From Promethearchaeota archaeon (lineage in GTDB: Archaea > Asgardarchaeota > Lokiarchaeia > Sigyniarchaeales > SOKP01): a stretch of 64,000 bases of DNA. Below the pieces are notes generated by a model. It had not been told where the DNA came from and ran no database searches. It worked only from the letters and a program-made list of their open reading frames with translations. A program made the position numbers and the translations under genes. The stretch is taken from NCBI GenBank assembly GCA_030599585.1, contig JAUVNS010000008.1, forward strand, positions 175,285-239,284. The letters are read 5' to 3'. Every line of letters begins with the position of its first letter. The first letter of the stretch is position 1. Shown one piece after another: positions 15,177-64,000 of this stretch.

Positions 15177-15608
15177 TTAATTCAATAATAAAACGACTGC
15201 TTCGCCATCAGTGACAAGTTCTTCGTTTTGATTATAAACCTTGGTATCGCATCTTATAAATTTTAATTTACCATCCTTTTTGGTGAACTTCTCTTTAACT
15301 GTTGCGACAGCCGTAAGATCATCTCCAAAAAAAACGGGTTTAATAAACCGTACGCTTTGTTCGCCGTAAAGTATCCCTGGTCCAAACAAATGCACACCTA
15401 AAGATGCTGATATTAGGCCTACACTAATAACTCCGTGAGCAACTTGCTTTCCAAACATTTGAGTCTTAGCATACTCTGGATTCACATGAATTGGGTTATA
15501 ATCTCCAGAAACTTCAGCAAATTTCATCACATCTTCTTCTGTAATAGTTTTTGTGAATTTTGCAGAGTCTCCAACCTTATAATCATCAAATTTTACGGGT
15601 TCTAACAT
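15177..15608 (-). CDS. MaoC-family (R)-enoyl-CoA hydratase
   Basis: FAEVSGDYNPIH hydratase motif, AHG, GPG, F.KPVFFGD. Confidence 0.92.
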   Translation of the reverse strand: MLEPVKFDDYKVGDSAKFTKTITEEDVMKFAEVSGDYNPIHVNPEYAKTQMFGKQVAHGVISVGLISASLGVHLFGPGILYGEQSVRFIKPVFFGDDLTAVATVKEKFTKKDGKLKFIRCDTKVYNQNEELVTDGEAVVLLLN

Positions 15609-15758
15609 AAATTCAAATAATGAATAGACAGATAAAAATTTTGATGATTAAAATACTAGTATTGAAAATAGGTAAATGAAACCGCTTAAACATAAACCAA
15701 AACATTCTTGAGATACAAAGTATTATAGAAATTTAATTACAGGGATTAACGATTATCT

Positions 15759-16991
15759 TTGAATGATTTGAGTACTTCTAAAGGAAATTCAAGAGTTAAA
15801 AGTAGAAATATCTTAGCTTTATGCATCGCTAAACTAATCCATGGATTTGGAGCAAGTATGTTTAACGTTGTATATCAACCATTTCTTTTAGACATTACAA
15901 ATTCACTATTTATTACTGGAGTTTTAGTTACTTTAGGCAGTGTTATGCAATTTCTGCCCATGCCTTTAGTAGGTAAGTTATCTGATAGGATAGGGCATAA
16001 AACTACAATTATCGCAAGCATTCCAATATATATTTTAGGATTAGTGTTAATTTTCATTTCAGATTCAAATAATATCCTTTACCTAATTTTTGGAATCGTC
16101 ATGTTCTTCTTGGGATTTACCCTAAATAACATGAATGGTCAATTCCTAGTAGCCGAAAATAGTGGATCGTCGAAGGGATTGATGTATAGTCTGATATTTT
16201 TTTCGTTCTTTCTTGGAAGCATCGGTGGAAATGCTTTTGTGATTTTTAGTAAATCGATTAGTACGCGCGTCTTCTTTTTAATATTTATGGGAATATTAAT
16301 AGTAGAAGGCGTAATATTCACATTTTTCCTATCAACTAAATGGAAAAAACAAAAAGCTGACGAACTCATAAATGAGGATCTTCACAGTAAAAAGGAGAAG
16401 CTATGGCTGCAATTTTTTAAGAATCCGAGGATGAGATCGATCCTTATTTTTTTTACTCTAGATATTTTTATTTATGGAATCTCTTTTTCCATTTACAACG
16501 GGGGATTACGCGACTATTACCATTTAACAACTGTGGAAATATCTTTCATAGTTATTTGGATGAATATTACAAATATGTTATTCCAGATTCCCGCTGGACG
16601 TATCACTGATAAGCTCGGTAAAAAGAAATCTTTAATTTTAAGCGCAATAACGGGTTTAATTTTTTTCATCATAAATATTATAGCCTCGATATTGTGGTCT
16701 AATGGAATGACGTTTGTTCTGATTCCGTCTCTAGTGGTTGCCCATATAATATTTGCTTTTTCAATAATTACGTTTATTCCATCAGAGCAGATTATCCTTA
16801 CAGATTTAGGAAAAAATAAGAAAGCGGAATCGTATGGAATTGTATCATTTATTAGAGGTGTAGGATTTATTCCAACGGGTATAATAGGGGCTCTTTTAAT
16901 AGAAAATGTCCATTATTTAGCCCCCTTTATTATAACATCAATAGGGATTCTAGTGGAAATCTGGTTTTTGTTCAAATTCTTCCACGATTAG
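15759..16991 (+). CDS. MFS transporter
   Basis: About 12 TM segments; motif A twice (GKLSDRIGHK, GRITDKLGKK). Confidence 0.9.
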   Translation: MNDLSTSKGNSRVKSRNILALCIAKLIHGFGASMFNVVYQPFLLDITNSLFITGVLVTLGSVMQFLPMPLVGKLSDRIGHKTTIIASIPIYILGLVLIFISDSNNILYLIFGIVMFFLGFTLNNMNGQFLVAENSGSSKGLMYSLIFFSFFLGSIGGNAFVIFSKSISTRVFFLIFMGILIVEGVIFTFFLSTKWKKQKADELINEDLHSKKEKLWLQFFKNPRMRSILIFFTLDIFIYGISFSIYNGGLRDYYHLTTVEISFIVIWMNITNMLFQIPAGRITDKLGKKKSLILSAITGLIFFIINIIASILWSNGMTFVLIPSLVVAHIIFAFSIITFIPSEQIILTDLGKNKKAESYGIVSFIRGVGFIPTGIIGALLIENVHYLAPFIITSIGILVEIWFLFKFFHD

Positions 16992-17130
16992 TGTTTCTGC
17001 TTTTCTTATTGCTTATCGTAGAAGTGTAAAAAAACTATTAAAAAGAGAAAGAATAAGAAATAAAATAATTCGAAAATTCAATTTAATAGTTTTTAAAATA
17101 ATAAATAATAATTAACTAAAGGTAGAAAAA

Positions 17131-18390
17131 ATGGGAAAATTAGCACGACGCGTTGCGATTGTTGGAGCGGGAATGTCACAATTTGGAAGATTATTCCCTT
17201 TGAAGCGAAACCCAGATTTATGGGTAGATGCTTGGCTAGACGCAGTAAAAAGAGTAGATAATGGTATTGAACCTAAAGATGTTGACGCTTGTTATATTGG
17301 AAATTATTCTTCGGATCTTTTTAATCATCAAGGTCATCTCGCACCCCAAATGGCAAACTTCGTAGGATTATCTCCAAAACCAGCATCTCGATTTGAAGGT
17401 GCCTGTGCCAGTAGTGGTGTTGCTCTGAGACAGGGTGTTATTGCGATAGCTTCAGGTATACACGATGTGATCGCTGTTGGTGGATGTGAAACGATGAATG
17501 AAGTATCGACAACTTTGGTAACAGATACTTTAGCTACGGCATCAGATAATTTATTTGAGTACCCTGCTGGCGCAACATTTCCGGGATTATATGCTGCTGT
17601 TGCTTCGGCACATTTCCACAAATACGGAACTAATGCTGAAGATTTAATGAGAATTGGAATTAAAAACCATGAAAATGGAACACAAAATCCATTCGCGCAA
17701 ATGCAACTTTCAATAAAAGATCTAATGGATAAAAAATTGTCTAAATTGGAAAAACAAGGTAAAGATATTCCAGATTGGAAAGATGAATTCGATTTTCTTA
17801 AGAGTTCCTCTAACCCTATGATTGCGAGTCCTCTTCGCCTTTTTGATTGCTCTCTTGTAACTGATGGAGCCGCCTGTGTGTTTTTAGCTGCAGAAGATGT
17901 CGCCAAACAATTTACTGACACGCCAATTTGGATTACCGGAACAGGTCAAGGTAGTGCCGCATTATCTTTACACGATCGAGATTCATTAACAAGTTTTGTA
18001 GCAACAAAAGAAGCAGCAAGACAAGCTTATCAGATGGCAAACCTTACTCCAAAGGACATTCAAATAGCGGAATTACACGATTGTTTTACTATTGCTGAAT
18101 TAGTAGCAATGGAAGACTTAGATTTTTATGAAAAAGGTAAAGCTGTTGATGCTATACGCGATGGAGAATCAAAGCTAGACGGGCGCTTACCTTTGAACAC
18201 ATCTGGTGGGCTTAAATCTAAAGGACATCCGGTAGGGGCTACGGGAGCTGCTCAAGCTGTAGAAATTTTCAAACAAATGAGGGGAATTGCTGAGAGGAAT
18301 CGACAAGTTAAATTTGATGTAGAGAAAGCACTCTCACACAATCTAGGTGGTAGCGGAGCTACATGTGTAGTTACAATTTATCAAAAATGA
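17131..18390 (+). CDS. Thiolase (SCP-x / archaeal acetyl-CoA C-acyltransferase type)
   Basis: EGACASSG catalytic Cys, AELHDCFT, NTSGGLKSKGHPVGATG, HNLGG. Confidence 0.95.
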   Translation: MGKLARRVAIVGAGMSQFGRLFPLKRNPDLWVDAWLDAVKRVDNGIEPKDVDACYIGNYSSDLFNHQGHLAPQMANFVGLSPKPASRFEGACASSGVALRQGVIAIASGIHDVIAVGGCETMNEVSTTLVTDTLATASDNLFEYPAGATFPGLYAAVASAHFHKYGTNAEDLMRIGIKNHENGTQNPFAQMQLSIKDLMDKKLSKLEKQGKDIPDWKDEFDFLKSSSNPMIASPLRLFDCSLVTDGAACVFLAAEDVAKQFTDTPIWITGTGQGSAALSLHDRDSLTSFVATKEAARQAYQMANLTPKDIQIAELHDCFTIAELVAMEDLDFYEKGKAVDAIRDGESKLDGRLPLNTSGGLKSKGHPVGATGAAQAVEIFKQMRGIAERNRQVKFDVEKALSHNLGGSGATCVVTIYQK

Positions 18391-18391
18391 G

Positions 18392-18823
18392 GTGAAAAAA
18401 GTGTCAGAAAATGAAAAAGAATTTACGATGGAAAGTTATCTGGAATTTTTACAAAGTAAAAAACTCATGGGATCAAAATGTAAAGATTGTGGTGAAACAT
18501 ATGTACCTTCAAGAAAATTATGCATAAAATGCAATTCAACAAATCTTGAATGGATTGAGATGTCAGGAAAAGGAAAAATAGCAGCGTTTTCTTGTATTGG
18601 AGTAGGAACATCATTTATGGCTGAAAAAGGATATTCTATCAAAAATCCTTATTGCTTCTCGGTTATTAAACTTGACGAGGGACCAAAGATTTCGGGTCAA
18701 TTGACGGGAGTTGACGAAAAACATCCTGAAACTATTAAAATTGGATCTCCAGTAAAGGTCAAATTTTTAGAAACTGAACTGAAAGGTGAAACAAGAATAG
18801 ATTTAGGTTTTGAACCCGCTTAA
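18392..18823 (+). CDS. DUF35 Zn-ribbon/OB-fold thiolase partner
   Basis: CKDCG..YVPSR.LC.KC, SGKGKI, PY...IKLDEGP, IKIGSPV; 1 bp after the thiolase stop. Confidence 0.92.
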   Translation: MKKVSENEKEFTMESYLEFLQSKKLMGSKCKDCGETYVPSRKLCIKCNSTNLEWIEMSGKGKIAAFSCIGVGTSFMAEKGYSIKNPYCFSVIKLDEGPKISGQLTGVDEKHPETIKIGSPVKVKFLETELKGETRIDLGFEPA

Positions 18824-20736: not shown

Positions 20737-21696
20737 TCAATGATCACATTCGTAGAAATAATGACCGAATTTCTCTTTAAAGGCTTCTGCGACTTCATTG
20801 GTTTTTGGACGAATAAATGCGTAACCATCTTTAATTGTTTCATAGGTAACGGGTAATGAACCTAACACTTCACCGTCAACTTGGCAAAGATAAGGATCAT
20901 CTTCTGATTTCAGCATTTCAATTCGTACTTTTTTACTCTGATACTCAAAAACATCAGGATGTGGTAATAACGAGGCACTATACATTCTTTTAAATTGAAA
21001 TAGCAATTTAAACTTACCAATATCAACAACGCTAATATCAAATAATCCATCTTCTACACTTGCCTTTTGACACACGTACATTCCTCCTCCGTATGCCCCT
21101 CCATTTCCTACCGCGGTTAAATTAGCCCTTCCTTCGTAAGTTTCATTATCCATTACAACTCTTATTTCTCTGCTTTTCCATTTGAACAGTGTCTTAATAA
21201 CGATAGAATTGTAGTTTTTTTCTTGGTTCTCGTTTGCCCTTTTCGCAACCTCTGCATCGAAGCCTTGTGATCCAATACCCAAAAAGTATCGTTCAACACC
21301 TTGATCTGTTTTAGCAAATCCTATATCTGATTTACCTGAATAACCTTCTGCGATAATTTCGCAAGCTCTTTTTATGTCAGGAGTTATCCCGATAACTGCG
21401 GGAATGTCATTTCCTGAACCCATAGGAATGAACCCACATAAAGCTCCAGATTTTGAACTAATGACGCCGTGTAAAACTTCATTACATGTGCCATCACCTC
21501 CCGCACCGATAACTTTATGTCCTTCTTTAGCTAATTTACTCGCTAATTCAATAGCGTGTCCAGCATACTCCGACTTGAATAATTCATATGACTGCTTAAG
21601 ATCGTCTAAACATTTTTTTGCGTATTCTATATCCTGTGCTGCCTGTTTCGACCCCCCAGCAATGGGATTATAGATAATCGCTAATTCTTTTTCCAT
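20737..21696 (-). CDS. Diacylglycerol/sphingosine kinase-family lipid kinase (YegS/DgkB-like)
   Basis: IYNPIAG, GAGGDGTCNEV, IPMGSGND, GFDAEV, GNGGAYGGG, QVDGE. Confidence 0.92.
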   Translation of the reverse strand: MEKELAIIYNPIAGGSKQAAQDIEYAKKCLDDLKQSYELFKSEYAGHAIELASKLAKEGHKVIGAGGDGTCNEVLHGVISSKSGALCGFIPMGSGNDIPAVIGITPDIKRACEIIAEGYSGKSDIGFAKTDQGVERYFLGIGSQGFDAEVAKRANENQEKNYNSIVIKTLFKWKSREIRVVMDNETYEGRANLTAVGNGGAYGGGMYVCQKASVEDGLFDISVVDIGKFKLLFQFKRMYSASLLPHPDVFEYQSKKVRIEMLKSEDDPYLCQVDGEVLGSLPVTYETIKDGYAFIRPKTNEVAEAFKEKFGHYFYECDH

Positions 21697-43441: not shown

Positions 43442-45301
43442 ATGACTAGTTTAAATGATCCAGAGTTTCTGGTTGACGAAAACAAGGTTTGGTTTACTGG
43501 AGGTTATTGGCCTGAAGGTGTTCCTCACCAACTTAAAGATGTAGACGGTATTGAAATGTTACCGATGTGGGAAGGATTCATAAAATCTGCTAACGATTAT
43601 GGAATCTGGGATAACGATATTTGTATTTTTGTGTATGGTCCATACATGGAAAAAGTTACATTGAGAACTCTTTTCGAATATGCTAAGAAATTTGGCACAT
43701 TTCTTTATGAAAACTTAGGAATAAGAAAAGGCGATGTAGTAGCAATCGATCTCCCTAATTCAATAAACTTTGTAGTAGCTTATATGGGTTGTATGTATAT
43801 TGGGGCAATTGCTCAAGGCATTAATCCTACTTATAAACCAATGGAATTACTGCACTCATTAACGATGACAAAGGCAAAGGTCTTAGTTTTAATGGACATG
43901 CTTTACATCGCCGGTCCCGCAACAATTCTTCCAAAAACTGATGTGAAATTTCTAATCCCCTCCAATTTTGTTGATTTTTTCACTGCTGACGAAGATACAA
44001 TCCAAAAACTCGGAATTCCAACCGCTAAAGATAAAATCCCGAATGAAACAGAGGATTATGAAATACATTGGATGAAGGACATAATAGACGGGACTGAACC
44101 AAAAGAAATTACAGTTGAAATAGAGGTCTGGAAAGATCCTGCGGTTTATCTTATGACTGGAGGAACAACTGGACTCCCTAAAGTAGCGATGCTAAGCCAT
44201 GCGAATCTTATTTCAAATTTATTCATGATAAAACCCTGGACCAATCTCGAACCAGGCATGATAACTATTGGAAGCATTCCATTTTTCCATAGCTTTGGAA
44301 TGACTTGTGTAATGAATGGAGCTCTATCCTTAGGAATGCAGATGTTACTGTTCCCTAAACCTCCTTCAGACGATGTTTTATCAGAAACAATAGATAAACT
44401 TGAAGCACCTCAAGGAATAATGTATACGGGAGTAGAAATGTTGTTTAAAAGACTTACAGATTATGTAAACGAAGTAGGTGTTGAAGAATACAAGAAAAAA
44501 TACACTTTTGCAGAGAAGCTAAAATATGCTACACAAGGAGCTGGTCCACTTCATGATCATATTCGCGTACCTTTTGAGGAAATCTTCTGTCCGATAAGAG
44601 TTGGTTATGGTTTAACTGAAACGTCCCCTGTTACTAGCATAGCACCATTTTGGGGTCCTAATAAAACGGGGAAGTTAGGTTTACCTGTATCCGGAGTAGA
44701 TTGGGCGATATTCGATTCAGCTGACTTTGACAAAGGTCCAATTTGTGACGGTACTCCTGAAATGAATCATTTTGGCGTTGAACATACCGGTGAAATTTGT
44801 GTTGCCGGACCACATATTATGCTTGGATATTTAGGAGTCCAAAGCGAGCAAGAAGACAATCTTAAGATGTGGAACGGAAAGAGGTGGTTGCTTACTGGAG
44901 ATATCGGGTTTATGGACGAACACGGATTCTGTGAAATAAGAGATCGAAAGAAATCTTTAATAAAAGTTTCTGGACATTCAGTATTTCCAAAGGAAGTTGA
45001 AGATTTAATGGGACACCATCCTGCGATAGATCAAGTTGCTGTAGCAGGATTACCAGACGAAAGCAGTGGTGAAAAGGTGAAAGCATGGATTGTACTAAAG
45101 AAAGGGTTTAAAGTTGGAAAGAATATTGAAGTTGAAGAAATTAAGAAATGGTGCATGGAAAATATGGCGAAATGGAAGAGCCCAAGATTAATTGAAGTCG
45201 CTCGAAAACTCCCCGTGTCAATAACTGGAAAAGTACAACGAAGACAACTCCAAGAAAAAGATATAGCAAAAATGGAAAGTGGAAAAGAAATAAAAGGTTA
45301 A
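43442..45301 (+). CDS. Long-chain fatty-acid--CoA ligase (AMP-binding)
   Basis: MTGGTTGLPK, GYGLTETSP, TGDIG.MD, DRKKSLIKVSG, LP.SITGKVQRR. Confidence 0.92.
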   Translation: MTSLNDPEFLVDENKVWFTGGYWPEGVPHQLKDVDGIEMLPMWEGFIKSANDYGIWDNDICIFVYGPYMEKVTLRTLFEYAKKFGTFLYENLGIRKGDVVAIDLPNSINFVVAYMGCMYIGAIAQGINPTYKPMELLHSLTMTKAKVLVLMDMLYIAGPATILPKTDVKFLIPSNFVDFFTADEDTIQKLGIPTAKDKIPNETEDYEIHWMKDIIDGTEPKEITVEIEVWKDPAVYLMTGGTTGLPKVAMLSHANLISNLFMIKPWTNLEPGMITIGSIPFFHSFGMTCVMNGALSLGMQMLLFPKPPSDDVLSETIDKLEAPQGIMYTGVEMLFKRLTDYVNEVGVEEYKKKYTFAEKLKYATQGAGPLHDHIRVPFEEIFCPIRVGYGLTETSPVTSIAPFWGPNKTGKLGLPVSGVDWAIFDSADFDKGPICDGTPEMNHFGVEHTGEICVAGPHIMLGYLGVQSEQEDNLKMWNGKRWLLTGDIGFMDEHGFCEIRDRKKSLIKVSGHSVFPKEVEDLMGHHPAIDQVAVAGLPDESSGEKVKAWIVLKKGFKVGKNIEVEEIKKWCMENMAKWKSPRLIEVARKLPVSITGKVQRRQLQEKDIAKMESGKEIKG

Positions 45302-52553: not shown

Positions 52554-53249
52554 ATGAACAAAAGAATACTTTTTATTGGTGATAGCATCACTGAGGGAAA
52601 AATAGGAATAGGATATGTTAATATAATTCAACGCAATTTCCCTGAATTTCAGTGTCAAAATTATGGACGCGGGGGTGATACTCTATCTGGAATTTTTACG
52701 AGACTTTTTAAAATTTTGAAAACAGAAACAGAATACTATGACGTTATAGTAATTGAAGCTGGCCATAACGATCTTTTCTTACCTTATGTCAAAAGTAAGT
52801 GGAAAGTCACAAGCATTAGAAAAGTAACTCCATTAAACAAGATAGAAGACTTTTATGATAATGGATTACGAATGGTAGGTTTATATAGCAAAGCTAAGAT
52901 AATCATAACTACTTTAAGTTGCTTAGGAGAAGTCTTAAATTCTCCGATAAACCAAAAAAGAAGATTAGTAAACGATCAGATAAAGAAAGTTGGTTCTAAA
53001 CATGGAGCATATATAGCAGACGTAAGTCCATTTTTTGATAAGATTTTAAGAAAAAGCATATCTGGTTATAATCTAATGGAGCATCCTTTAAACTTAGTTT
53101 TAGATTATTTTAGATCAAAAAGAATGAATTGGGTAGAAAAAATTAGCAGGAAAAGAGGGTTGATGTTGACTATAGACGGCGGACACCTCAATAGTAAAGG
53201 TGCGATAATATATGCCAAAGAACTATCCCGAATATTAAATATGCTCTAA
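52554..53249 (+). CDS. SGNH/GDSL hydrolase
   Basis: FIGDSITEG, NYGRGGDT, AGHND, DGGHLN. Confidence 0.92.
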   Translation: MNKRILFIGDSITEGKIGIGYVNIIQRNFPEFQCQNYGRGGDTLSGIFTRLFKILKTETEYYDVIVIEAGHNDLFLPYVKSKWKVTSIRKVTPLNKIEDFYDNGLRMVGLYSKAKIIITTLSCLGEVLNSPINQKRRLVNDQIKKVGSKHGAYIADVSPFFDKILRKSISGYNLMEHPLNLVLDYFRSKRMNWVEKISRKRGLMLTIDGGHLNSKGAIIYAKELSRILNML

Positions 53250-53300: not shown

Positions 53301-54725
53301 TTACAAATTCCTTGAAGTAATAGATTTTAATTCATTAGAAAGCGTGTCATCAATAGGTTTTAAAGAACTTTTCTCAGCGAGTTTAGTCGCCTGCTCCTTT
53401 GCTCTTTTTCGTGTAGACTTAGAGCCATTCTCTTTCCAAGCGTCTCGAGACATGCGATCTATTACCGGACTAACTATAAAAAGCTCTTTTCTAAAAAGCT
53501 TTAAAGTCGTTGGATGCGAAAGCAATTCTTCTTTTTCACTGTAGTCCTTTAAAATTTCTGAAGCGAATGGAGTACCGTGATCTTCTACTCCTCTTAGAAG
53601 TCGTTTCACCATTCCTACTACTTCGTTGTCAATTACTAATTTTTCAATGCTTTGAGTGGATTCAAAATCTAGCATGCCAGGTCCCGAAACCATATTAACA
53701 CCAGCAAGTCCCGCTAAAAGAGCTCCCATACCTCCTTCGAAACCCGCTTGAGCATCTGGAACTTTGGAATCACTGAGGCTCATGTAAGCATGAGTGGGCA
53801 TTTTCATAAATTTTCCCATTTCGACATCACCCAAGTTTATCATCATTGTCTCAATTGCGCCCATTGGAGTTGTACCTTGCTTCATATCTAATATTGCTGG
53901 TGATCCGCCCCAAATCAATGGAGCTCCTGTTTTTGCTAGCTGTCCAATTACAACGCCTGCTAAACATTCCGCAGAGTGTTGAGTTATGCACCCAATCAAA
54001 CTAATTGGAGCGCTAGCCCCTGCTAACGGCATAGAAACAAACTCAGATGGAATCATACTCTTGGCGGCATCGATAAGGGACTGAGATGTTAAGTCAGACC
54101 ACTTTAGCGGAGGACTAGGACAAGCATCGAAGATAGCTAAAGGTTTCCTTGCTAGATCATCCTCTGATAATCGACAACTTAACAATAATTCTTTCATTAT
54201 TGGAAAACTTTCTTTTCGAAATGTCCCGGTTATAACTGGTTTATAACAATTAGATAATGCGATATATAACCTATGCCAATCTTGTGCCTGGGTGGGGACA
54301 TCTTGATAAACTATAGCAGTGCTTTGAGCTTCGATATACTTTAAATGTTCTACTACTTTTGAAAAACGTACGAAATCTTTTTCGAACGCGTTTCTAATTG
54401 TCCCTGTATTCTCATCCAGAAACAATATCGCTGCTGAGCCAGGATCGTAATGAACATTATCGTTCGCTAAGGTAATATGCTCTTTACCCTCTCTATCAAA
54501 AAGTTTGATCTCACTTGGAACAGATTTGAGACATTTATCGACTAAATCAGAAGGAATGAAGTATCGAGAACCCTCGTGATTAACTCCCTCGCTGTTAAAT
54601 AATTCTTTAGCGTCATCATTTTCTAAAAATATTCCTAGATTTTCTAAAATATCTTTAGCCTCCTTGAATATCTTTACTTTATGATCTTCATCTAAAACGT
54701 TAATTCTTGGTCTTAATATTCCCAT
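53301..54725 (-). CDS. Trimethylamine methyltransferase (MttB) superfamily protein, non-pyrrolysine
   Basis: SPPLKW, MPLAGASAP.SL.G...QH.AECLAG...Q, GAPLIWG, SDSKVPDAQAG.E, G.N...G.GML, EKLVIDNE; continuous ORF with no in-frame TAG. Confidence 0.92.
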   Translation of the reverse strand: MGILRPRINVLDEDHKVKIFKEAKDILENLGIFLENDDAKELFNSEGVNHEGSRYFIPSDLVDKCLKSVPSEIKLFDREGKEHITLANDNVHYDPGSAAILFLDENTGTIRNAFEKDFVRFSKVVEHLKYIEAQSTAIVYQDVPTQAQDWHRLYIALSNCYKPVITGTFRKESFPIMKELLLSCRLSEDDLARKPLAIFDACPSPPLKWSDLTSQSLIDAAKSMIPSEFVSMPLAGASAPISLIGCITQHSAECLAGVVIGQLAKTGAPLIWGGSPAILDMKQGTTPMGAIETMMINLGDVEMGKFMKMPTHAYMSLSDSKVPDAQAGFEGGMGALLAGLAGVNMVSGPGMLDFESTQSIEKLVIDNEVVGMVKRLLRGVEDHGTPFASEILKDYSEKEELLSHPTTLKLFRKELFIVSPVIDRMSRDAWKENGSKSTRKRAKEQATKLAEKSSLKPIDDTLSNELKSITSRNL

Positions 54726-54750
54726 CCTAACATACACACTCTCATTTTAG

Positions 54751-55638
54751 TTAATTCCCTAGTGAATCTATAAGTTTTCTTATTTCTTTTATAGTATCTG
54801 GAGACGTTCCACAGCAACCTCCTACAATTTTAGCGCCCAGTTGAATCATTTCTCCAATATCATTTACAAAATCTTTAATAGGTTGATCGTAAACTGCTAT
54901 ATTATTACTGTTCATTCTTGGTTGTCCTGCGTTAGGTTTTATAGATATCGGTTTATCAGTGAGAAGCTTCAAATCTTTCATTAAATCAACCATTTCATCA
55001 CTTCCTAATGTGCAATTTGCTCCAATGACATCTACTTTTTGATCTTCCTGAAATCGGACGCATTTTTCTAATGAATCTCCCATTATCGTATAAAAACCTC
55101 TTTTCGTCTTTTTATAAGTCATAGAGCTAATGATCGGTTTTTTTGAAATGGTTTTCACCGCTTCCAAAGCTGCTTTCATCTCTTCAATATCTGACATTGT
55201 TTCTATATGCCATAAATCTACTCCATCTTCTAAGAAACCAACTTGCTTCTCAAAGCTAGAAGTCCATTGATCTGGTGATGCTTTTCCAACTGGAGGTCTA
55301 AATTCACCAGAGGGCCCTATATCAGCAACAATTAAACGATTTGGAGGGCGTGCTTTTTTTATGTTTTCTAAGCCGCCTAGGTTTATTTCTTTGATTCGAT
55401 CTTCTATTTTATAATTCTTTAGGTTTATGAAGCTCGACCCAAAAGTGTTTGATTGACACATGTCTGCCCCTGCATCATAATAGGCTTTATGGATTTCGAA
55501 AATCACATCTGGATGGTCGATATTGAGCGTATCAGGGAGTTTTCCCGGCATAATGCCGCGTTTAAAAACTTCTGACCCCATTCCTCCATCAAATAGTATA
55601 ATTTTAGAACTATCATTCAGCCAATCATGAAATAACAT
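54751..55638 (-). CDS. Homocysteine S-methyltransferase domain protein (MetH N-terminal-like, stand-alone)
   Basis: LFDGGMGS, HKAYYDAGAD...NTFG, DIGPSG, IETMSD..E, GANC, KPNAGQP, IVGGCCGTSP (Zn ligands). Confidence 0.92.
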   Translation of the reverse strand: MLFHDWLNDSSKIILFDGGMGSEVFKRGIMPGKLPDTLNIDHPDVIFEIHKAYYDAGADMCQSNTFGSSFINLKNYKIEDRIKEINLGGLENIKKARPPNRLIVADIGPSGEFRPPVGKASPDQWTSSFEKQVGFLEDGVDLWHIETMSDIEEMKAALEAVKTISKKPIISSMTYKKTKRGFYTIMGDSLEKCVRFQEDQKVDVIGANCTLGSDEMVDLMKDLKLLTDKPISIKPNAGQPRMNSNNIAVYDQPIKDFVNDIGEMIQLGAKIVGGCCGTSPDTIKEIRKLIDSLGN

Positions 55639-55668
55639 AGTAGTCCTACCTATAAATCCATTTTAATA

Positions 55669-56316
55669 TTATTTGTTTAAGAGATTTTTAACTAATTTAA
55701 CAGCTCCTACAGCACTACCAGCAAATCCGTCGGCATTACATTGTTCTGTCCACTCTTTTGTAACTGGAGCTCCACCAATTATTACTTTAAAATTATCTCG
55801 AATCCCTTTATCCTCTAAAATATCGATGATCTTTTTTTGACCGAACATTGTTGTAGTAAGCAAAGCAGAAACCCCTATTATGTCCGCATTTTTCTCTACT
55901 GCTGTTTCGATGATTTTTTCCGCTGGAACATCAGCCCCCAGATCGTAAACATCAAAACCATTAGCACTAAGCATAGTACCTACAATTGTTTTTCCAATTG
56001 AATGAATATCTCCCTCAATCGTTGCAATTACTACAACGCCTTGAGATGCAGAAGCTCCACTCTCTTTCAAACTTGGTAAAAGAATATCCATTGATTCTTG
56101 CATAATGTTTCCACCAAGCATTAATTCTGGCAAGAAAAATTCCCCTTCTTCCCAGAGATCACCAATTCTTCGGATTCCGTCACCATATCCTTTTTCGATG
56201 ACCTCTAACAAGTTCCATTTTTCAGTAATCGCCCTTTTTGCAAGTTCAATTGCTTTCTCCTCATCTAAATTCACAATTGCGTCAGAAATTTCACCATAAA
56301 ATTGTTCTTGAGCCAT
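55669..56316 (-). CDS. Corrinoid-binding methyl-carrier protein (MttC/MtbC-like)
   Basis: Cap domain GEFFLPEL, DxHxxG as EGDIHSIGK, DLGADVP, SALLTTTM, IGGAP. Confidence 0.95.
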   Translation of the reverse strand: MAQEQFYGEISDAIVNLDEEKAIELAKRAITEKWNLLEVIEKGYGDGIRRIGDLWEEGEFFLPELMLGGNIMQESMDILLPSLKESGASASQGVVVIATIEGDIHSIGKTIVGTMLSANGFDVYDLGADVPAEKIIETAVEKNADIIGVSALLTTTMFGQKKIIDILEDKGIRDNFKVIIGGAPVTKEWTEQCNADGFAGSAVGAVKLVKNLLNK

Positions 56317-59321: not shown

Positions 59322-59585
59322 TTACTTGTCCAGATTATTAGTAAAGACTTCACCGGTTAAACTTTTAGCAAGCTTAGCGCTCGTATCAAAAAGACCCTTC
59401 ATAGATTTATAAAAGATATCACCAATAAATTCGCTCAACTTTTTATCTGGTTCCATGTTAGCTTCAGAATCTCCAAGTTCATTCAATTCTTTTATAAGAT
59501 CTACTTTTTTTTCCTTGAGTTCCTTAGTAAGACTCTCAAAATTATTTTCGATATCATCCCTTTCAGGATTTTTGTTATTTTCCAT
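59322..59585 (-). CDS. Small helical hypothetical protein
   Basis: GAGGT RBS; 17 bp downstream of the PlsC-like gene on the same strand; amphipathic C-terminal helix. Confidence 0.7.
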   Translation of the reverse strand: MENNKNPERDDIENNFESLTKELKEKKVDLIKELNELGDSEANMEPDKKLSEFIGDIFYKSMKGLFDTSAKLAKSLTGEVFTNNLDK

Positions 59586-59602
59586 TTTTTTTTACCTCAT
59601 TT

Positions 59603-60298
59603 TTATTCTTGTTCTGTTTCAGGGTGTACCCTAAGAGAATCGATAATCTTAATTATATCCGCAGCAAGTTCGTATCTCTCATCTCGGTATTTTGGACGAG
59701 ATAATCGTTTTTCTACTTTAAGCGGGGTTCCAATTTTTACTCTTATCCCTGTCGTGTCAATTAAATTTAGAATTTTTGCCTTTTCCGTGTATATTGCTAT
59801 TGGAATTATAGGTGCCATCGCAGCAACAGCGAATTTAATAATACCCGCCATCGCTTTCACTTGAACCTCAGGAGTAAGTTTAGATTCTGGGGTCATTGCT
59901 ACAAGATCTCCGGTCTCGTTGAGATAATGGAATACTTTATCTATTGGTATTGTATCGTCTTTATCAAGCGTGCTACGGAACATACCTAACGTTTTAAGAA
60001 CGGGTCCGTACAATTGGTGTTTCATTAATTTATGATAAACCATAAAATGAATTCTTCGTCCAGAAACCTGGCTAATAATTGCCATATCTCTCATAGCGTT
60101 TTCGCTTACTGTCGTTAAAATAGCTTTCCCTATAATGGGTACGTTTTCTTTGCCTTCTATCTTTAAATCGGCAAATGCTTCTAAACCAAAGCCTCCAATA
60201 CCTTTTACAGCTGCGTATAAAATATCTTTCATCAGATTCTTACTATTAAGTTTATTTTCTCCTTTCGTTTCCTTTTCTTCTGTTGATGTTTCAACCAT
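59603..60298 (-). CDS. PlsC/LPLAT acyltransferase-fold protein with degenerate catalytic motif
   Basis: KIEGKENVP..GKAIL, RRIHFM, VAMTPE, GIIKFA....APIIPIAI, IRVKIGTPL; the HxxxxD position reads SENAMRD. Confidence 0.75.
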   Translation of the reverse strand: MVETSTEEKETKGENKLNSKNLMKDILYAAVKGIGGFGLEAFADLKIEGKENVPIIGKAILTTVSENAMRDMAIISQVSGRRIHFMVYHKLMKHQLYGPVLKTLGMFRSTLDKDDTIPIDKVFHYLNETGDLVAMTPESKLTPEVQVKAMAGIIKFAVAAMAPIIPIAIYTEKAKILNLIDTTGIRVKIGTPLKVEKRLSRPKYRDERYELAADIIKIIDSLRVHPETEQE

Positions 60299-60312
60299 TT
60301 ATATCCTCTCCT

Positions 60313-60507
60313 TTATAATTTGTCTATAAAATTGCTAACTTCCTCCATCCGTCTCTCGTAATATTCCTTTAACTCTTTCTCGGAAACAAACGAAGGAATT
60401 ACTTTTTCTAAATAAATATCAAAAATTGTTGATAATTTAGTTTTATGTTGAAGAGACTCAAGAAATTCCTCTCCTAAGTGCTTCAATTGATTAAAAAATT
60501 CTGCCAT
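60313..60507 (-). CDS. Small hypothetical protein
   Basis: 64-aa ORF tightly packed between the activase and PlsC-like genes, with a purine-rich RBS. Confidence 0.6.
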   Translation of the reverse strand: MAEFFNQLKHLGEEFLESLQHKTKLSTIFDIYLEKVIPSFVSEKELKEYYERRMEEVSNFIDKL

Positions 60508-60531
60508 TTCTCTTTTTCCTCTAAACTTTAA

Positions 60532-61557
60532 TTAAGTTAATTGATCCCATTTCCCACATCTGGAACCCCAACGAGCAATCACTTTATTTCCATATTCAGG
60601 CATTTTAACTTGGACTATTTCGCAATTATTTGGGCAATCACCGCAATTAAATGCGGATGTTGTGAATTCTATTTCAGATACTTCAAGACCTCTGAATTCT
60701 GTCTCGTGTTCGTGTTCAATATAGTAATCTCGCACGAGGATAGCCATACCCAGAGCTCCCATCAGTACATTATATTTAGGAACAATAACTTTGCAGCCTA
60801 AATGCCTTTCGAAAGCTTCTATAATTCCTTGATTATATGAAACTCCTCCTTGAAAGACAATCGGTTCTTCTAAATCTTTTCCCTTTCCAACATTGTTCAT
60901 GTAATTTCTAACAAGCGAATCGCATAATCCTGCGATAATATCATCTTTGGTATAACCTGCGTTTTGTTTGTGAATCATGTCAGACTCCGCAAAAACCGTG
61001 CATCTTCCAGCAATGCTCACGGGATTTTTCGATTTTATAGCATAATCACCAAACTCTTCTATTGCAATCCCAAGTCGTGCTGCTTGATGATCCAAGAATG
61101 AACCCGTTCCAGCTGCACAAATAGAATTCATAGCAAAATCTATAATTATCCCATCTCGTAAGAGTATTATCTTCGAGTCTTGACCTCCAATTTCTAAAAT
61201 TGTTCTTACATCTGGGTATATAGTTTGAGCAGCAACAGCGTGAGCGATAATCTCTGTTTTTGCGAGATCAGCGCCAACTATAGCTTTAGTTAAATACCTT
61301 GCAGAACCAGTCGTTCCGCAACATCGTATTGCATACTCGTGTAAATTTTCGCTTTTTTCTATGTTTTCACGTAATTCAGCCATCCCTGCTTTTGCTGATT
61401 CAATAGGAGAACCTCGATTTCGTAAAAATACGCTGGAAAGTATATTTCCATCGGAATCCATTAGCACAAATTTGCAACTCACGCTCCCTATGTCTATTCC
61501 AAGGAAAGCATCCTTTTTTTGTTCTTCTTCAACTACTTTTTCAGTAACATCTTCCAT
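60532..61557 (-). CDS. 2-hydroxyacyl-CoA dehydratase activase-type ATPase (BcrAD/BadFG/HgdC family) with C-terminal Cys cluster
   Basis: LGIDIGSVSCK, TTGSAR, EIIAHA, LEIGGQDSK, MNSICAAGTGSFLD, IAGRCTVFAESD, QGGV, GALG, C-terminal CGDCPNNC...GSRC. Confidence 0.93.
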   Translation of the reverse strand: MEDVTEKVVEEEQKKDAFLGIDIGSVSCKFVLMDSDGNILSSVFLRNRGSPIESAKAGMAELRENIEKSENLHEYAIRCCGTTGSARYLTKAIVGADLAKTEIIAHAVAAQTIYPDVRTILEIGGQDSKIILLRDGIIIDFAMNSICAAGTGSFLDHQAARLGIAIEEFGDYAIKSKNPVSIAGRCTVFAESDMIHKQNAGYTKDDIIAGLCDSLVRNYMNNVGKGKDLEEPIVFQGGVSYNQGIIEAFERHLGCKVIVPKYNVLMGALGMAILVRDYYIEHEHETEFRGLEVSEIEFTTSAFNCGDCPNNCEIVQVKMPEYGNKVIARWGSRCGKWDQLT

Positions 61558-61569
61558 TTATACTTACCA

Positions 61570-62760
61570 CTAAATTGAATTTTGAATTAATTGATAACAT
61601 TGGTTGTAAAATATATCTCCAAAATGAGGATATATCTTTTTATTACCATTTGATACGAATTTAGCATTATTTTTAATTTCTTTATTCCTACGACCATGCA
61701 TTAGGTCGGAGAAGGCCTCGAGTCGCGTCCGAAACCCCTCCATGCCACTTTGCTCGTCAAATGAGAAATATATAATCGGGAGGTCGTACATCTTCTTAAG
61801 CTTGTTGGTTATAATTGTTCGAGCAGTCACTTCTGGCATGCAAAGAAACGGATATTCGTGAACGAAACCATCAAAACCCGCTTTAGCTTTGTCAATATAC
61901 TCCCCAAGCACCCATCTCGCCTCGCCCCCTATATCCATAGGCATGTAGGGATGTGAAAGATGCTCTAACCATTTTCTATGATAGTTTAGGTGAAATTTGT
62001 GAACTACCCAATCGTAAAGACTTAGGGATTGGTGAATTTCGATTCCCATTTCACCTAACTTGCGTCTGATATCAAGATTCACATAAGGCTCTAAGCTAAT
62101 GTGAATTTCTCCTGAAAGTCCCACCTTTAAGGGACTTAGAGATTTATCGATATCGAGACTATTAAAGTCTTCTTTAATTACATTCTTGAATTTCCTTAAC
62201 ACAGGGAGCGTATTGGCTTCATCAAGTTTTGTTAACAAATCATTAACGATATTAGTTGTGTCTCCTTGATTTCGCTCGTAAGCCCGGAAAACGCCCTCAG
62301 CGGTTTGAATGTCATTTAAAAGTTTAGCTTTTTTTAAGAAAAAGATAATAGCCTTAACGAATTTAGAGTAAATAAATAAATCTCTTCGGCCGCTTAACTC
62401 TTGAAGCGTTTTAACCCAATTAAACTCAAGTAAATCAGCCTGATCTAGCGGAACAACCGTAATATCTTTATATCCCATATCCCTTAAGATTCGTTCTTGA
62501 ACCGATGCATAAAAACCGAATCGACAAGGTCCACAATCAATAGCCATTACCAATGTATCTGCTCCCTTCTTAATAGCGTTCACGAAGTCTCCTATCGTTG
62601 CTTTAAACGGAAAGCAAACAAATTCTGGACTATGTTTAACACCGATTTTAATTGCTTCTCGATTAGTTGGATCTGGAATGACCACATCTAATCCTAAGCT
62701 TGTAAATAGTGTTTTGAAAGCCACCCAGTTCGGACCCATGTTAGGGAAGGATATTAACAT
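61570..62760 (-). CDS. 2-hydroxyacyl-CoA dehydratase-like / DUF2229 (PlsR-like) Fe-S subunit
   Basis: SFPNMG, GVKHSPEFVCFPFK..IG, CGPCRFGFY, KVGLSGEI, DGFVH.YPFLCMPE, FDEQSG.EG.RTRLEAF. Confidence 0.82.
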   Translation of the reverse strand: MLISFPNMGPNWVAFKTLFTSLGLDVVIPDPTNREAIKIGVKHSPEFVCFPFKATIGDFVNAIKKGADTLVMAIDCGPCRFGFYASVQERILRDMGYKDITVVPLDQADLLEFNWVKTLQELSGRRDLFIYSKFVKAIIFFLKKAKLLNDIQTAEGVFRAYERNQGDTTNIVNDLLTKLDEANTLPVLRKFKNVIKEDFNSLDIDKSLSPLKVGLSGEIHISLEPYVNLDIRRKLGEMGIEIHQSLSLYDWVVHKFHLNYHRKWLEHLSHPYMPMDIGGEARWVLGEYIDKAKAGFDGFVHEYPFLCMPEVTARTIITNKLKKMYDLPIIYFSFDEQSGMEGFRTRLEAFSDLMHGRRNKEIKNNAKFVSNGNKKIYPHFGDIFYNQCYQLIQNSI

Positions 62761-62930
62761 AACAGTTTAATAGATTAATTTCAATTTTTTACTTAGCAAT
62801 GTATTTGATCAAATAACACAATTTAAAATAAAAATTTACCCATTACAAACAGATTCTCAATCGTATGTTATTCTTAATAAAAAATGGGAGTAATTTTAAT
62901 AATATAAGATACAAAAATACAAATTTTAGA

Positions 62931-63113
62931 TTACTCCAAATACCTTTTAACTCTTCTTTGTATTTCCATTTTCAAGTCTTCTGTAAATAAAATTGGATCT
63001 TCAATGCCTCTCTTCTCTTTAGCTAAAATAGCCGAACCATCTTGAATATATAAAAGAAAATCTATTTCAACACAGGAATCGAATAAAAGCCCCGATTTTC
63101 TCATTACTCTCAA
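62931..63113 (-). CDS. Possible small hypothetical protein
   Basis: 60-aa ORF overlapping the upstream stop by 4 nt; no motif. Confidence 0.35.
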   Translation of the reverse strand: MRVMRKSGLLFDSCVEIDFLLYIQDGSAILAKEKRGIEDPILFTEDLKMEIQRRVKRYLE

Positions 63114-64000
63114 AGGTTAAAAAGAGATCCGATATCAAAAAACGAATTTCTTGAAAAAAACTCGAGTCCATTCCTAACGGCGAATCCTACATCTAATTTC
63201 TTTGATGGATTCAGCATTGTTAAAACCTTTGACATTGGTGTTTCAATACTAGACACGAAATATTCAAAATTGGATTTCGGCTTAAAATATATATTTTTTA
63301 CTTCATCCGGGACCACATACTTGGCATCTCTAAACAAGGGATTATTTTTCTTGTTGCCAACCATTAAATCATGAAATGCTTCGATTCTTGTTCTAAGTCC
63401 TTCAAAACCAGAACTTCCATCAAGACTAAAATGAATGTGGGGCATATAAAACTTGTCCATGTTTTTCTCAGCTTCTAACATTCCCATGAAGGATATTTCG
63501 GGGAGACAGGTGAAGGGAAAAACGTGAACAAATCCATCAAAACCTTTTTCTTGACACTCAAGATAAGATCCCATGTTCCACTGGGCTTCTCCTCCCACAT
63601 CCATTGGAATATAATTTCTTGCACTATGTGCAAGCCGTCTTCTTCGTTTGCTGGCGTCAAGTTTATACATAACCCAATCAAAGACATCATACTGCTTGTG
63701 AACCTCGATGCCCATGACGCCTAATTCTCCCATCATATCATAATTAACCCATTTCTCCAACATGACTTGGATTTCCCCAGTATAACAAACCCTCAAAGGT
63801 TCCATTTCCTTGTCAATAGGAATCTTGCGAAATTGTTCATCTATCGTTTTTTCAAAATAAGATAATTTCATCAAATTATTTTCGTTATCAAGTAAATTCA
63901 TCAAAGTATGAACTACTTTGGTAGTCATTGCTTTGTTTTTTTCTCGACATCTAACAAGTCCTTCAATATGGGTTATTCTTTCAACATAGTATGCTTTGAC
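63110..64000 (-). CDS. Second dehydratase-like/DUF2229 subunit, paralogue of 61570-62760 (N-terminus beyond the window)
   Basis: LRVCYTGEI, YIPMDVGGEAQW, FDGFVHVFPFTCLPE, SLDGSSGFEGLRTRIEAF; the frame is open to 64000 (VKAYYVERITHIEGLVRCRE aligns with the paralogue). Confidence 0.85.
   Translation of the reverse strand, partial: VKAYYVERITHIEGLVRCREKNKAMTTKVVHTLMNLLDNENNLMKLSYFEKTIDEQFRKIPIDKEMEPLRVCYTGEIQVMLEKWVNYDMMGELGVMGIEVHKQYDVFDWVMYKLDASKRRRRLAHSARNYIPMDVGGEAQWNMGSYLECQEKGFDGFVHVFPFTCLPEISFMGMLEAEKNMDKFYMPHIHFSLDGSSGFEGLRTRIEAFHDLMVGNKKNNPLFRDAKYVVPDEVKNIYFKPKSNFEYFVSSIETPMSKVLTMLNPSKKLDVGFAVRNGLEFFSRNSFFDIGSLFNL

Follow-up and report, generated by a model that had tools for sequence, protein, structure and literature searches.

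According to PMC13159169 and PMC8788747, the only DUF2229-type enzymes with demonstrated activity are the bacterial plasmalogen synthase PlsA/PlsR and the glycerol ester reductase Ger, and the substrates are glycerolipid esters. PlsA/PlsR is represented by C. perfringens CPE1194/1195 and, as single-gene PlsA, by Enterococcus and Lactococcus (PMC12838417, PMC9702350, PMC8788747); the domains of the plasmalogen synthase are named Act1, Act2, Red1 and Red2 (PMC12838417). Ger is represented by T. maritima Tmari_0479 and D. alkenivorans SHJ90043 and follows the domain plan BBDHDDH, i.e. two PF01869 domains, one PF09989 domain and then short PF06050 and PF09989 pieces, with the fused double activase (BB) being conserved in all alkyl-ether producers (PMC13159169). 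Here we describe a gene cluster with related domains in a Promethearchaeota archaeon (NCBI GenBank assembly GCA_030599585.1; genome G000). It lies at the end of the 64,000-nucleotide stretch that we analysed, which is referred to as the window (contig JAUVNS010000008.1, positions 175285-239284; G000:C22:175285-239284). We report that the genes in the window make up the downstream part of a larger lipid gene cluster, in which a reductase split over three genes (alpha, B and ACT) is set between PlsC-type genes, and we discuss whether this reductase might convert ester lipids to ether lipids.

It is an old and unsolved question how an archaeal host whose lipids are isoprenoid ethers could give rise to eukaryotes, whose lipids are fatty-acyl esters. 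For the Asgard archaea, plsC and plsY are on record (PMC13400652, citing Coleman 2019 and Manoharan 2019; PMC12993045), and Ger homologues are known in Lokiarchaeota and Heimdallarchaeota from a search that required only 30% coverage (PMC13159169); these have been published as separate gene lists (PMC13159169; PMC13400652). Our literature search returned no description of the operon, of the split three-gene form or of a PlsC that lacks its His, although supplements may list these genes.

Gene order and reconstruction of the cluster

Contig C22 stops at the last base of the window and gene A, which runs into this end, is therefore truncated. The features of the cluster in the window are:

A: 63110..>64000, minus strand; 296 amino acids (aa) read, 5' end open; C-terminal part of a ~441-444-aa Red2-type (beta) subunit
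Upstream element of B: 62801..62867, minus strand; ~67 nt, conserved, with a TATA-like box; candidate promoter/operator
B: 61570-62760, minus strand; 396 aa; Red2-type (beta) catalytic subunit with a DUF2229 N-terminal and an HGD-D C-terminal piece
ACT: 60532-61557, minus strand; 341 aa; single-domain HgdC-type activase ATPase with a C-terminal four-Cys extension
s64: 60313-60507, minus strand; conserved 64-aa open reading frame (ORF)
sPlsC: 59603-60298, minus strand; 231 aa; PlsC fold, catalytic His of HX4D missing
s87: 59322-59585, minus strand; 87-aa ORF, genus-restricted

ORF calls and Pfam bear out the minus-strand gene row that a sequence-only reading of this DNA had described, with the tail motif CxxCxNxC...GSRC and with gaps of 12-24 bp across the last five genes (B to ACT 12 bp, ACT to s64 24 bp, s64 to sPlsC 14 bp and sPlsC to s87 17 bp). 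The gap between A and B is 349 bp. The truncated A, s64 and s87 gave no Pfam family above cut-off, s87 having a weak DUF7337 match below it, and a search of the ESM atlas with s64 gave no match; s64 is present between ACT and sPlsC in nine related loci, and s87 was seen within the genus only (loci L032, L047 and L049 and a tblastn match in genome G083). A 60-aa ORF with a TTG start (62931-63113) was treated as spurious: it has no family and overlaps the stop of A.

The element upstream of B includes the TATA-like TTTGTAAT, ends 40 nt 5' of the B start codon and could be aligned in nine genomes, whether B is preceded by A, by alpha or by an unrelated gene. Judged from its sequence and position, it may be the promoter/operator of a B-ACT-s64-sPlsC-s87 unit. 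Three metatranscriptome libraries, each from a different study, gave contigs of 151-350 nt with 90-99% identity that match parts of A, B, ACT and sPlsC and the s64/sPlsC junction; some parts of the stretch are uncovered, and we conclude nothing from those holes. Among the RNA libraries, run X15 is probably DNA.

The upstream half of the cluster is found on another contig of the same assembly, C44 (3.7 kb), which carries the end of a HAD hydrolase gene, a 582-aa frame with two PlsC domains (double PlsC), alpha (358 aa) and the N-terminal 148 codons of an FAD fusion gene (C44:1-444). The G000 assembly lacks the remainder of the fusion, a second activase gene (ACT2) and the 5' ~148 codons of A. 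Two members of the same genus show how these parts belong together. The simplest order is that of G104, with HAD, double PlsC, alpha, B, ACT, s64, sPlsC and s87. The intact locus of G113 begins with alpha (365 aa, full DUF2229), a 977-aa protein with two activase domains and DUF2229, and a 469-aa protein, which are followed by an 837-aa fusion of FAD_binding_4, DUF2229 and HGD-D, ACT2 (343 aa), A (441 aa) and B; after B there is a 4.2-kb insert and then ACT, s64, sPlsC and an s87 homologue. From these relatives we infer for G000 the order HAD phosphatase, double PlsC, alpha, [FAD-alpha' fusion, ACT2, A], B, ACT, s64, sPlsC, s87, where the brackets mark the nested genes. The window thus represents the downstream half of a lipid gene cluster, and the true partner of B is the Red1-type alpha on C44.

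A nested second reductase set

Over 229 aa, A shares 42% identity with B (E 7e-64), and the sequence-only reading had listed the two as paralogous dehydratase-like/DUF2229 subunits. They are not an HgdA/HgdB-like pair, since the trees and the G113 locus place both as Red2-type subunits from two nested reductase sets, and A and B therefore do not form a heterodimer pair. Specifically, all B-like sequences, including A, split from the alpha subunits (support 99 in FastTree, 100 in quick IQ-TREE), and A clusters with the B of family f2 and not with that of family f1 (99 in both trees). The deep branching among the Asgard f1/f2, the f5-type and the bacterial clades is unresolved in both trees, and we claim neither a donor nor a direction of transfer. 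Full-length A orthologues have 441 aa in G113 and 444 aa in G109 and are there preceded by the second activase and the FAD_binding_4, DUF2229 and HGD-D fusion; identity is 42% between the alpha' part of the fusion and alpha and 51% between ACT2 and ACT. A thus belongs, together with ACT2 and FAD-alpha', to a second reductase set nested within the first.

The 837-aa fusion of G113 (L032:12128-14641) likewise starts after alpha in G144 (L148:1-187). The best PDB matches of its N-terminus are cytokinin oxidases (E 1.9e-19) and it is therefore classed only as a VAO-family flavoprotein; an assignment as alkyl-dihydroxyacetone phosphate synthase (AGPS) was rejected, the AGPS match having an E-value of only 1e-3.

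The pair of genes for the 977- and 469-aa proteins, in-cluster in G113, has a counterpart in G000 outside the window on another contig (C12:69618-73966), where a 969-aa protein with two activase domains and DUF2229 (BB-D) is followed by a 462-aa protein with a weak resemblance to B (hhalign probability 35%). It adjoins a member of a 295-aa protein family that is multi-copy in G000 (contigs C23, C15, C47, C49, C12, C38, C34 and C20). In the relatives, insertions accumulate between alpha and B and between B and ACT (L032:4160-8420, L043:3064-7251 and L036:5745-8004), the inserts being 4.2 kb with a 295-aa protein, or carrying a Usp gene or a PIN-domain gene, and the contigs of relatives often break at the locus.

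The reductase subunits

In B, Pfam identifies DUF2229 at residues 8-70 (E 1.9e-11), and its relatives show an additional DUF2229 piece at 140-215. The match to HGD-D (PF06050) is confined to residues 294-352; a full-length PF06050 match above cut-off, which would mark an HgdAB/HadBC-type subunit, was found neither for B (18.6 bits, cut-off 28.4) nor for the A orthologue (17.3 bits). The alpha on C44 matches PF09989 (DUF2229) at positions 1-217 (E 1.5e-43), and its orthologues are composed of DUF2229 and HGD-D. Three Cys residues are invariant in each subunit, C49, C79 and C307 in B (27 sequences) and C63, C101 and C289 in alpha (24 sequences), and these would be expected to bind Fe-S clusters.

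The structural model of B (predicted local distance difference test, pLDDT, 86.1) matches the folds 7yyl, 6eno, 3o3m, 8s02 and 9gai with E-values from 3e-8 to 8e-5, and is about equidistant from DCCP, HadBC, BzdNO and MbdON (template modelling (TM) score ~0.5, 12-15% identity). As modelled, B has the BCR/HAD catalytic-subunit fold with three conserved Cys. At the sequence level, PDB searches gave nothing below E 0.7 for B and nothing below 0.3 for the B profile, and we found no solved DUF2229 protein; with the alpha profile only the last ~70 residues of DCCP and HadC match. No NCBIfam model matches alpha, B or the fused alpha-B protein, and PF09989 matches are present in the control genomes of T. 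maritima and L. lactis. Together, the family models and the PDB searches uphold the assignment in the sequence-only reading of the reductase to the DUF2229 type, as in PlsA/PlsR and Ger, and not to HgdAB/HadBC. At this level, the grouping with HgdAB/HadBC that would have spoken against that reading is not seen.

ACT is a BcrAD_BadFG activase (PF01869, E 2e-48; TIGR00241, 202 bits with a cut-off of 125.4; PDB 4eht_A, E 4.8e-38). Its C147 and C186, the two cluster Cys of HgdC-type activases, and C305, C308, C312 and C334 are invariant in all 39 aligned activases from Asgard archaea and bacteria. Within these 39 sequences, the four-Cys tail aligns with the linker between activase and DUF2229 in the fused 977-aa BB-D protein.

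Homologues of B number 1008, and the best 120 are 76-94% identical to it and carry Asgard labels. Where named, the labels of B and sPlsC homologues are Lokiarchaeota, Promethearchaeota, Hermod-, Thor-, Odin- and Hodarchaeota; one cluster in each of the two homologue lists is labelled Nanopelagicaceae bacterium, probably because of mis-binning. Among the best 150 B relatives, 16 of the 17 matches longer than 600 aa are fused alpha-B proteins (671-770 aa) with the same domain order.

The acyltransferase genes

The sPlsC protein belongs to PF01553 (E 7.2e-8, 32.8 bits, cut-off 23) and scores 33.5 bits with TIGR00530, below the cut-off of 102.95. Its model (pLDDT 77.6) is closest to T. maritima PlsC (5kym_A, E 1.5e-7, TM 0.59), followed by LpxM, PatA and GPAT. 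Where a canonical neighbouring PlsC has N-H-Q-S-E-F-D, the window protein reads S-E-N-A-M-R-D, that is, with Glu at the position of the catalytic His. The alignment of 120 listed homologues (of 253 with E<=1e-3) has Asp at this position in 96, Glu in 11, Lys in 8, His in 2 and Gln, Pro and a gap in one each. The Asp of HX4D is kept in all 120 and the Glu of motif III is also kept, although the motif reads TPESK, TPEAK, TPESR or TPEAR in this family (TPESK in sPlsC) in place of FPEGT. When MAFFT was run again, the reference moved by one column; with either register, a His four residues before the Asp is absent from 118 of the 120. Since the catalytic His is missing, sPlsC is not an active acyltransferase of the usual kind and is probably not an ACYLTRANSFERASE, while proteins of this type nonetheless bear the database name 1-acyl-sn-glycerol-3-phosphate acyltransferase. 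The PlsC fold given in the sequence-only reading is upheld by PF01553 and 5kym_A.

The double PlsC on C44 is intact in both halves, with the HX4D motifs H-E-S-H-L-D and H-N-S-E-W-D and the motifs III FPEGTR and YPEGTT, and its orthologue in G104 matches TIGR00530 in two stretches (157.5 bits, cut-off 102.95). The only three PF01553 matches in G000 are sPlsC and the two halves of the double PlsC; a hidden Markov model built from seven PlsC domains and run against the 5801 open frames of at least 90 aa in G000 gave nothing at E<=1 beyond these two proteins.

Elsewhere in G000, we noted GGGPS (PcrB, E 5e-54; C28:71940-72617) and one PlsY-family gene (E 6.1e-30; C34:144868-145362). Matches to Fe-ADH_2, the family that includes glycerol-1-phosphate dehydrogenase, are weak (best E 8.6e-9), and this model gave no clear glycerol-1-phosphate dehydrogenase.

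Conservation in Asgard genomes and bacterial counterparts

We surveyed 151 genomes of the phylum and detected B-like genes in 39, distributed as 24 of 25 genomes in family f1, 2/2 in f2, 10/13 in f5, 1/5 in f16 and 1/1 in f27, and none in other families. The f16 match comes from a 2.3-kb contig of G031 (L147, G031:C6, 2342 bp) with the trio and PF01553 that is near-identical to C44 (alpha 738 bits); this contig is probably mis-binned, which would explain the lone match, and it was not counted. Counting G000, we studied the flanks of the B orthologue in 13 genomes of family f1. Every one of the 13 clusters includes a PF01553-family gene. In 11 of them ACT is followed by sPlsC, the exceptions being G138 and G030 with insertions at this point, and wherever the flank extended far enough the double PlsC is located 5' of alpha. 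In f2, both genomes carry a pair of PlsC genes before alpha, with Phe for His in the second, and in G123 (f27) DegV and PlsY precede alpha. The linkage to PlsC proposed from the window alone is thus kept across the f1 (13/13) and f2 (2/2) genomes, and the cluster adds to it the double PlsC, the HAD phosphatase and alpha.

For the bacteria we used an alignment of the fused alpha-B proteins as query and kept the best 80 of 590 confirmed stretches, which belong mostly to Dehalococcoidia and other Chloroflexota, Bacillota and Sumerlaeota. Of these 80 loci, 65 have the alpha-B-ACT trio in split form and 21 have plsX; in 19 of the latter plsX is positioned directly 3' of ACT, with a 4-nt overlap with ACT in nine. 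FabD is nearby in 11. That PlsC, PlsY/DegV and PlsX should be partners of the trio in three lineages is hard to ascribe to chance, although within a lineage the linkage counts as about one event. The lipid context of the cluster is well supported. As a separate observation, 19 Dehalococcoidia loci (L104:5998-10069 and 18 others) have an M20 peptidase gene before the trio and thioredoxin and thioredoxin reductase genes after it.

Other genes in the window

Three further genes in the window had been pointed to as compatible with a lipid function:

AMP-binding: 43442-45301; family match
DAGK_cat: 20737-21696; family match
Thiolase: 17131-18390; family match

These families (ligase, lipid kinase and thiolase) are indeed present, but the genes are 14-40 kb distant and add little. 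The thiolase gene is part of a group at 15177-18823, ~41 kb from the cluster, with genes for a MaoC dehydratase (minus strand) and an OB-fold (ChsH2_C-type) protein, which are of the kind proposed for archaeal acyl-chain metabolism. At 53301-56316 there are genes for an MttB-family methyltransferase, an S-methyltransferase and a B12-binding corrinoid protein, i.e. a methyl-transfer set of the methylamine/betaine type.

Proposed function

By analogy with PlsA/PlsR and Ger, we consider with moderate confidence that alpha, B and ACT together constitute an accessory ester-to-ether lipid reductase. In the pathway we envisage, the double PlsC would attach two fatty acyl chains to glycerol phosphate by ester bonds, and a phosphate would be taken off by the HAD enzyme. 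An ACT dimer, reduced by a low-potential donor, would spend ATP to inject electrons into the Fe-S clusters of alpha and B. These two subunits would in turn act on an acyl ester of the glycerolipid and convert it, by reduction and dehydration, to an alk-1-enyl or alkyl ether, the reaction published for PlsA/PlsR and Ger. The sPlsC protein may hold the lipid without acyl transfer, as part of the acyltransferase module and not as an obligate reductase subunit, and the reductase would be an accessory modifier of ester lipids that is not essential to this module. The wider proposal, which we put forward tentatively, is that Loki-type Asgard archaea use a self-contained operon to make hybrid lipids with ether-linked fatty chains, through a double-PlsC diester, a three-subunit ATP-driven Fe-S reductase and a catalytically dead PlsC-fold protein as lipid-holding helper, with a second set, its Red1 fused to a VAO-type flavoprotein, adding a redox step in some genera.

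G083, a 100% complete genome of the same genus, bears on the role of sPlsC. It retains HAD, the double PlsC, sPlsC and a match to s87. Of alpha, B, ACT and s64 nothing is left, and a search of the whole genome with B as query gave no B-like match. This speaks against a reductase that is needed wherever the acyltransferases occur; from the gene content it follows that sPlsC travels with the acyltransferases and that the reductase is dispensable, which fits an accessory modifier of ester lipids, as PlsA and Ger are in bacteria, and argues against sPlsC as an obligate reductase subunit. Between the double PlsC and sPlsC, G083 has a 204-aa ORF (L146:6066-6680, C6) with a Toxin-deaminase match (E 4.3e-8).

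Several other points weigh against the proposal. In family f5, 10 of the 13 genomes carry the trio and 0/13 have PF01553, and no PlsC-family neighbour was found in 18 f5-type loci (phmmer; Pfam on five of the 18), of which only one (L042 of G123) has PlsY and DegV beside the trio; the trio family therefore needs no PlsC and may have several substrates. Conversely, PF01553 is present without a B-like match in f14 (4/4), f22 (7/7) and f25 (1/1), and only one of the 80 bacterial loci has a PlsC-family neighbour. The f1 and f2 genomes are kin, so their linkage may reflect a single event in evolution. The join of C44 to the end of C22, which we infer from the relatives, is unassembled. Likeness to PlsA/PlsR and Ger was judged by published domain plans, the trees containing no verified PlsA/PlsR or Ger sequences, and no ~1400-aa BBDHDDH protein is present among the best 150 B relatives. 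No lipid product of the cluster is on record; the metatranscriptome contigs hint at transcription in sediments, but contigs from RNA libraries can contain DNA. Finally, PMC13400652 cites a single study of the lipids of a cultured Lokiarchaeon, which reported archaeal lipids only, and notes that its method may miss ester lipids.

These points leave room for other functions. The trio might instead reduce or dehydrate an acyl donor (acyl-coenzyme A (CoA), acyl-phosphate or a hydroxyacyl thioester), whose product PlsC, PlsY or PlsX would take, giving unusual chains, aldehydes or alcohols and not ethers. All characterised solved fold relatives (HadBC, BzdNO, MbdON and DCCP) do use CoA thioesters or small molecules, the Dehalococcoidia trio is coupled to plsX (acyl-acyl carrier protein/acyl-phosphate) and not to plsC, and in G123 the trio adjoins DegV, which belongs to a fatty-acid-binding family. 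We nevertheless regard this as unlikely, given that the DUF2229 enzymes with demonstrated activity, PlsA/PlsR and Ger, use glycerolipid esters (PMC13159169, PMC8788747) and that the cluster has no CoA transferase or ligase.

The use of scavenged bacterial ester phospholipids, which the cluster would remodel or degrade, as also suggested in the sequence-only reading, with sPlsC capturing the lipid and HAD stripping the head-group phosphate, appears less probable still: the His-less PlsC fold suggests binding without transfer, and a GDSL lipase family gene is found 6 kb off (52554-53249), but a double PlsC with both HX4D motifs and a score above the TIGR00530 cut-off points to synthesis, and no lipase or transporter is conserved within the cluster in the relatives. 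Least probable, and in our view rather remote, is that the trio is a 2-hydroxyacyl-CoA dehydratase or another fermentation enzyme that merely happens to lie beside lipid genes, the outcome that the sequence-only reading had named as its refutation. The host organisms are reputed fermenters, ACT is closest to HadI/HgdC among solved structures and one f5-type trio (L038) lies beside aminotransferase and ornithine cyclodeaminase genes; against this, the HGD-D match is limited to ~60 C-terminal residues and below cut-off, there is no sequence-level match to HadBC, and the linkage to PlsC, PlsY or PlsX recurs in three different arrangements. Moreover, neither a CoA transferase nor a 2-hydroxyacid dehydrogenase was found in the cluster, here and in 12 related loci, the CoA_trans genes of the window being ~50 kb away.

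If the wider proposal holds, the lineage closest to eukaryotes would offer a living example of mixed archaeal and bacterial lipid chemistry. In place of a vague inventory of genes there is now a defined cassette that can be cloned, with a clear read-out in the form of alkyl glycerols or plasmalogen aldehydes, and nature provides controls, namely a relative without the reductase (G083) and a family with the reductase and without PlsC (f5). A caution is that the PlsC annotations in these genomes include a probably inactive form.

Comparison with known reductase systems

With HgdAB/HgdC, HadBC/HadI, BcrABCD/BzdNOPQ/MbdONPQ and DCCP/DCCP-R the cluster shares the superfamily fold of B and the type of activase, and by analogy with HgdC- and BcrABCD-type systems ATP-driven electron injection would be the expected principle. 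It differs from HgdAB, HadBC, BCR and DCCP in the low identity (12-15%), in having no CoA-handling neighbours and in the four-Cys tail of ACT. On the acyltransferase side, sPlsC shares with T. maritima PlsC (5kym) the fold, the Asp of HX4D and the motif III Glu, whereas the His is replaced (by D, E or K in 115 of 120).

The likeness to PlsA/PlsR and Ger extends to the BcrAD_BadFG activase, a Red1 with full DUF2229 and HGD-D, a Red2 with short pieces of DUF2229 and HGD-D, the conserved Cys ligands, the anaerobic setting and the lipid acyltransferase genes nearby. In terms of domains, alpha (D and H), B (D, D and H) and ACT (B) correspond to the BBDHDDH plan of Ger, spread over three genes. Unlike in these systems, ACT has one PF01869 domain in 341 aa and not two fused, and an ACT homodimer could substitute for the fused BB. 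Different are also the archaeal host, the setting between a double PlsC and a His-less PlsC and, in this genus, the nested second set whose Red1 is fused to a VAO-type flavoprotein. The BB-D and 462-aa pair on C12 has, like the plasmalogen synthase, two activase domains and DUF2229, together with a four-Cys linker as in the ACT tail, and its two genes code for ~1440 aa in all, a size near that of the 4199-bp plsA-plsR fragment (PMC12838417). It is the more canonical PlsR/PlsA-like or Ger-like unit of the genome; unlike the trio in the window it is fused and has no acyltransferase neighbours in G000. Probably, this BB-D type is what was counted as the 'Ger homolog' of Lokiarchaeota in PMC13159169.

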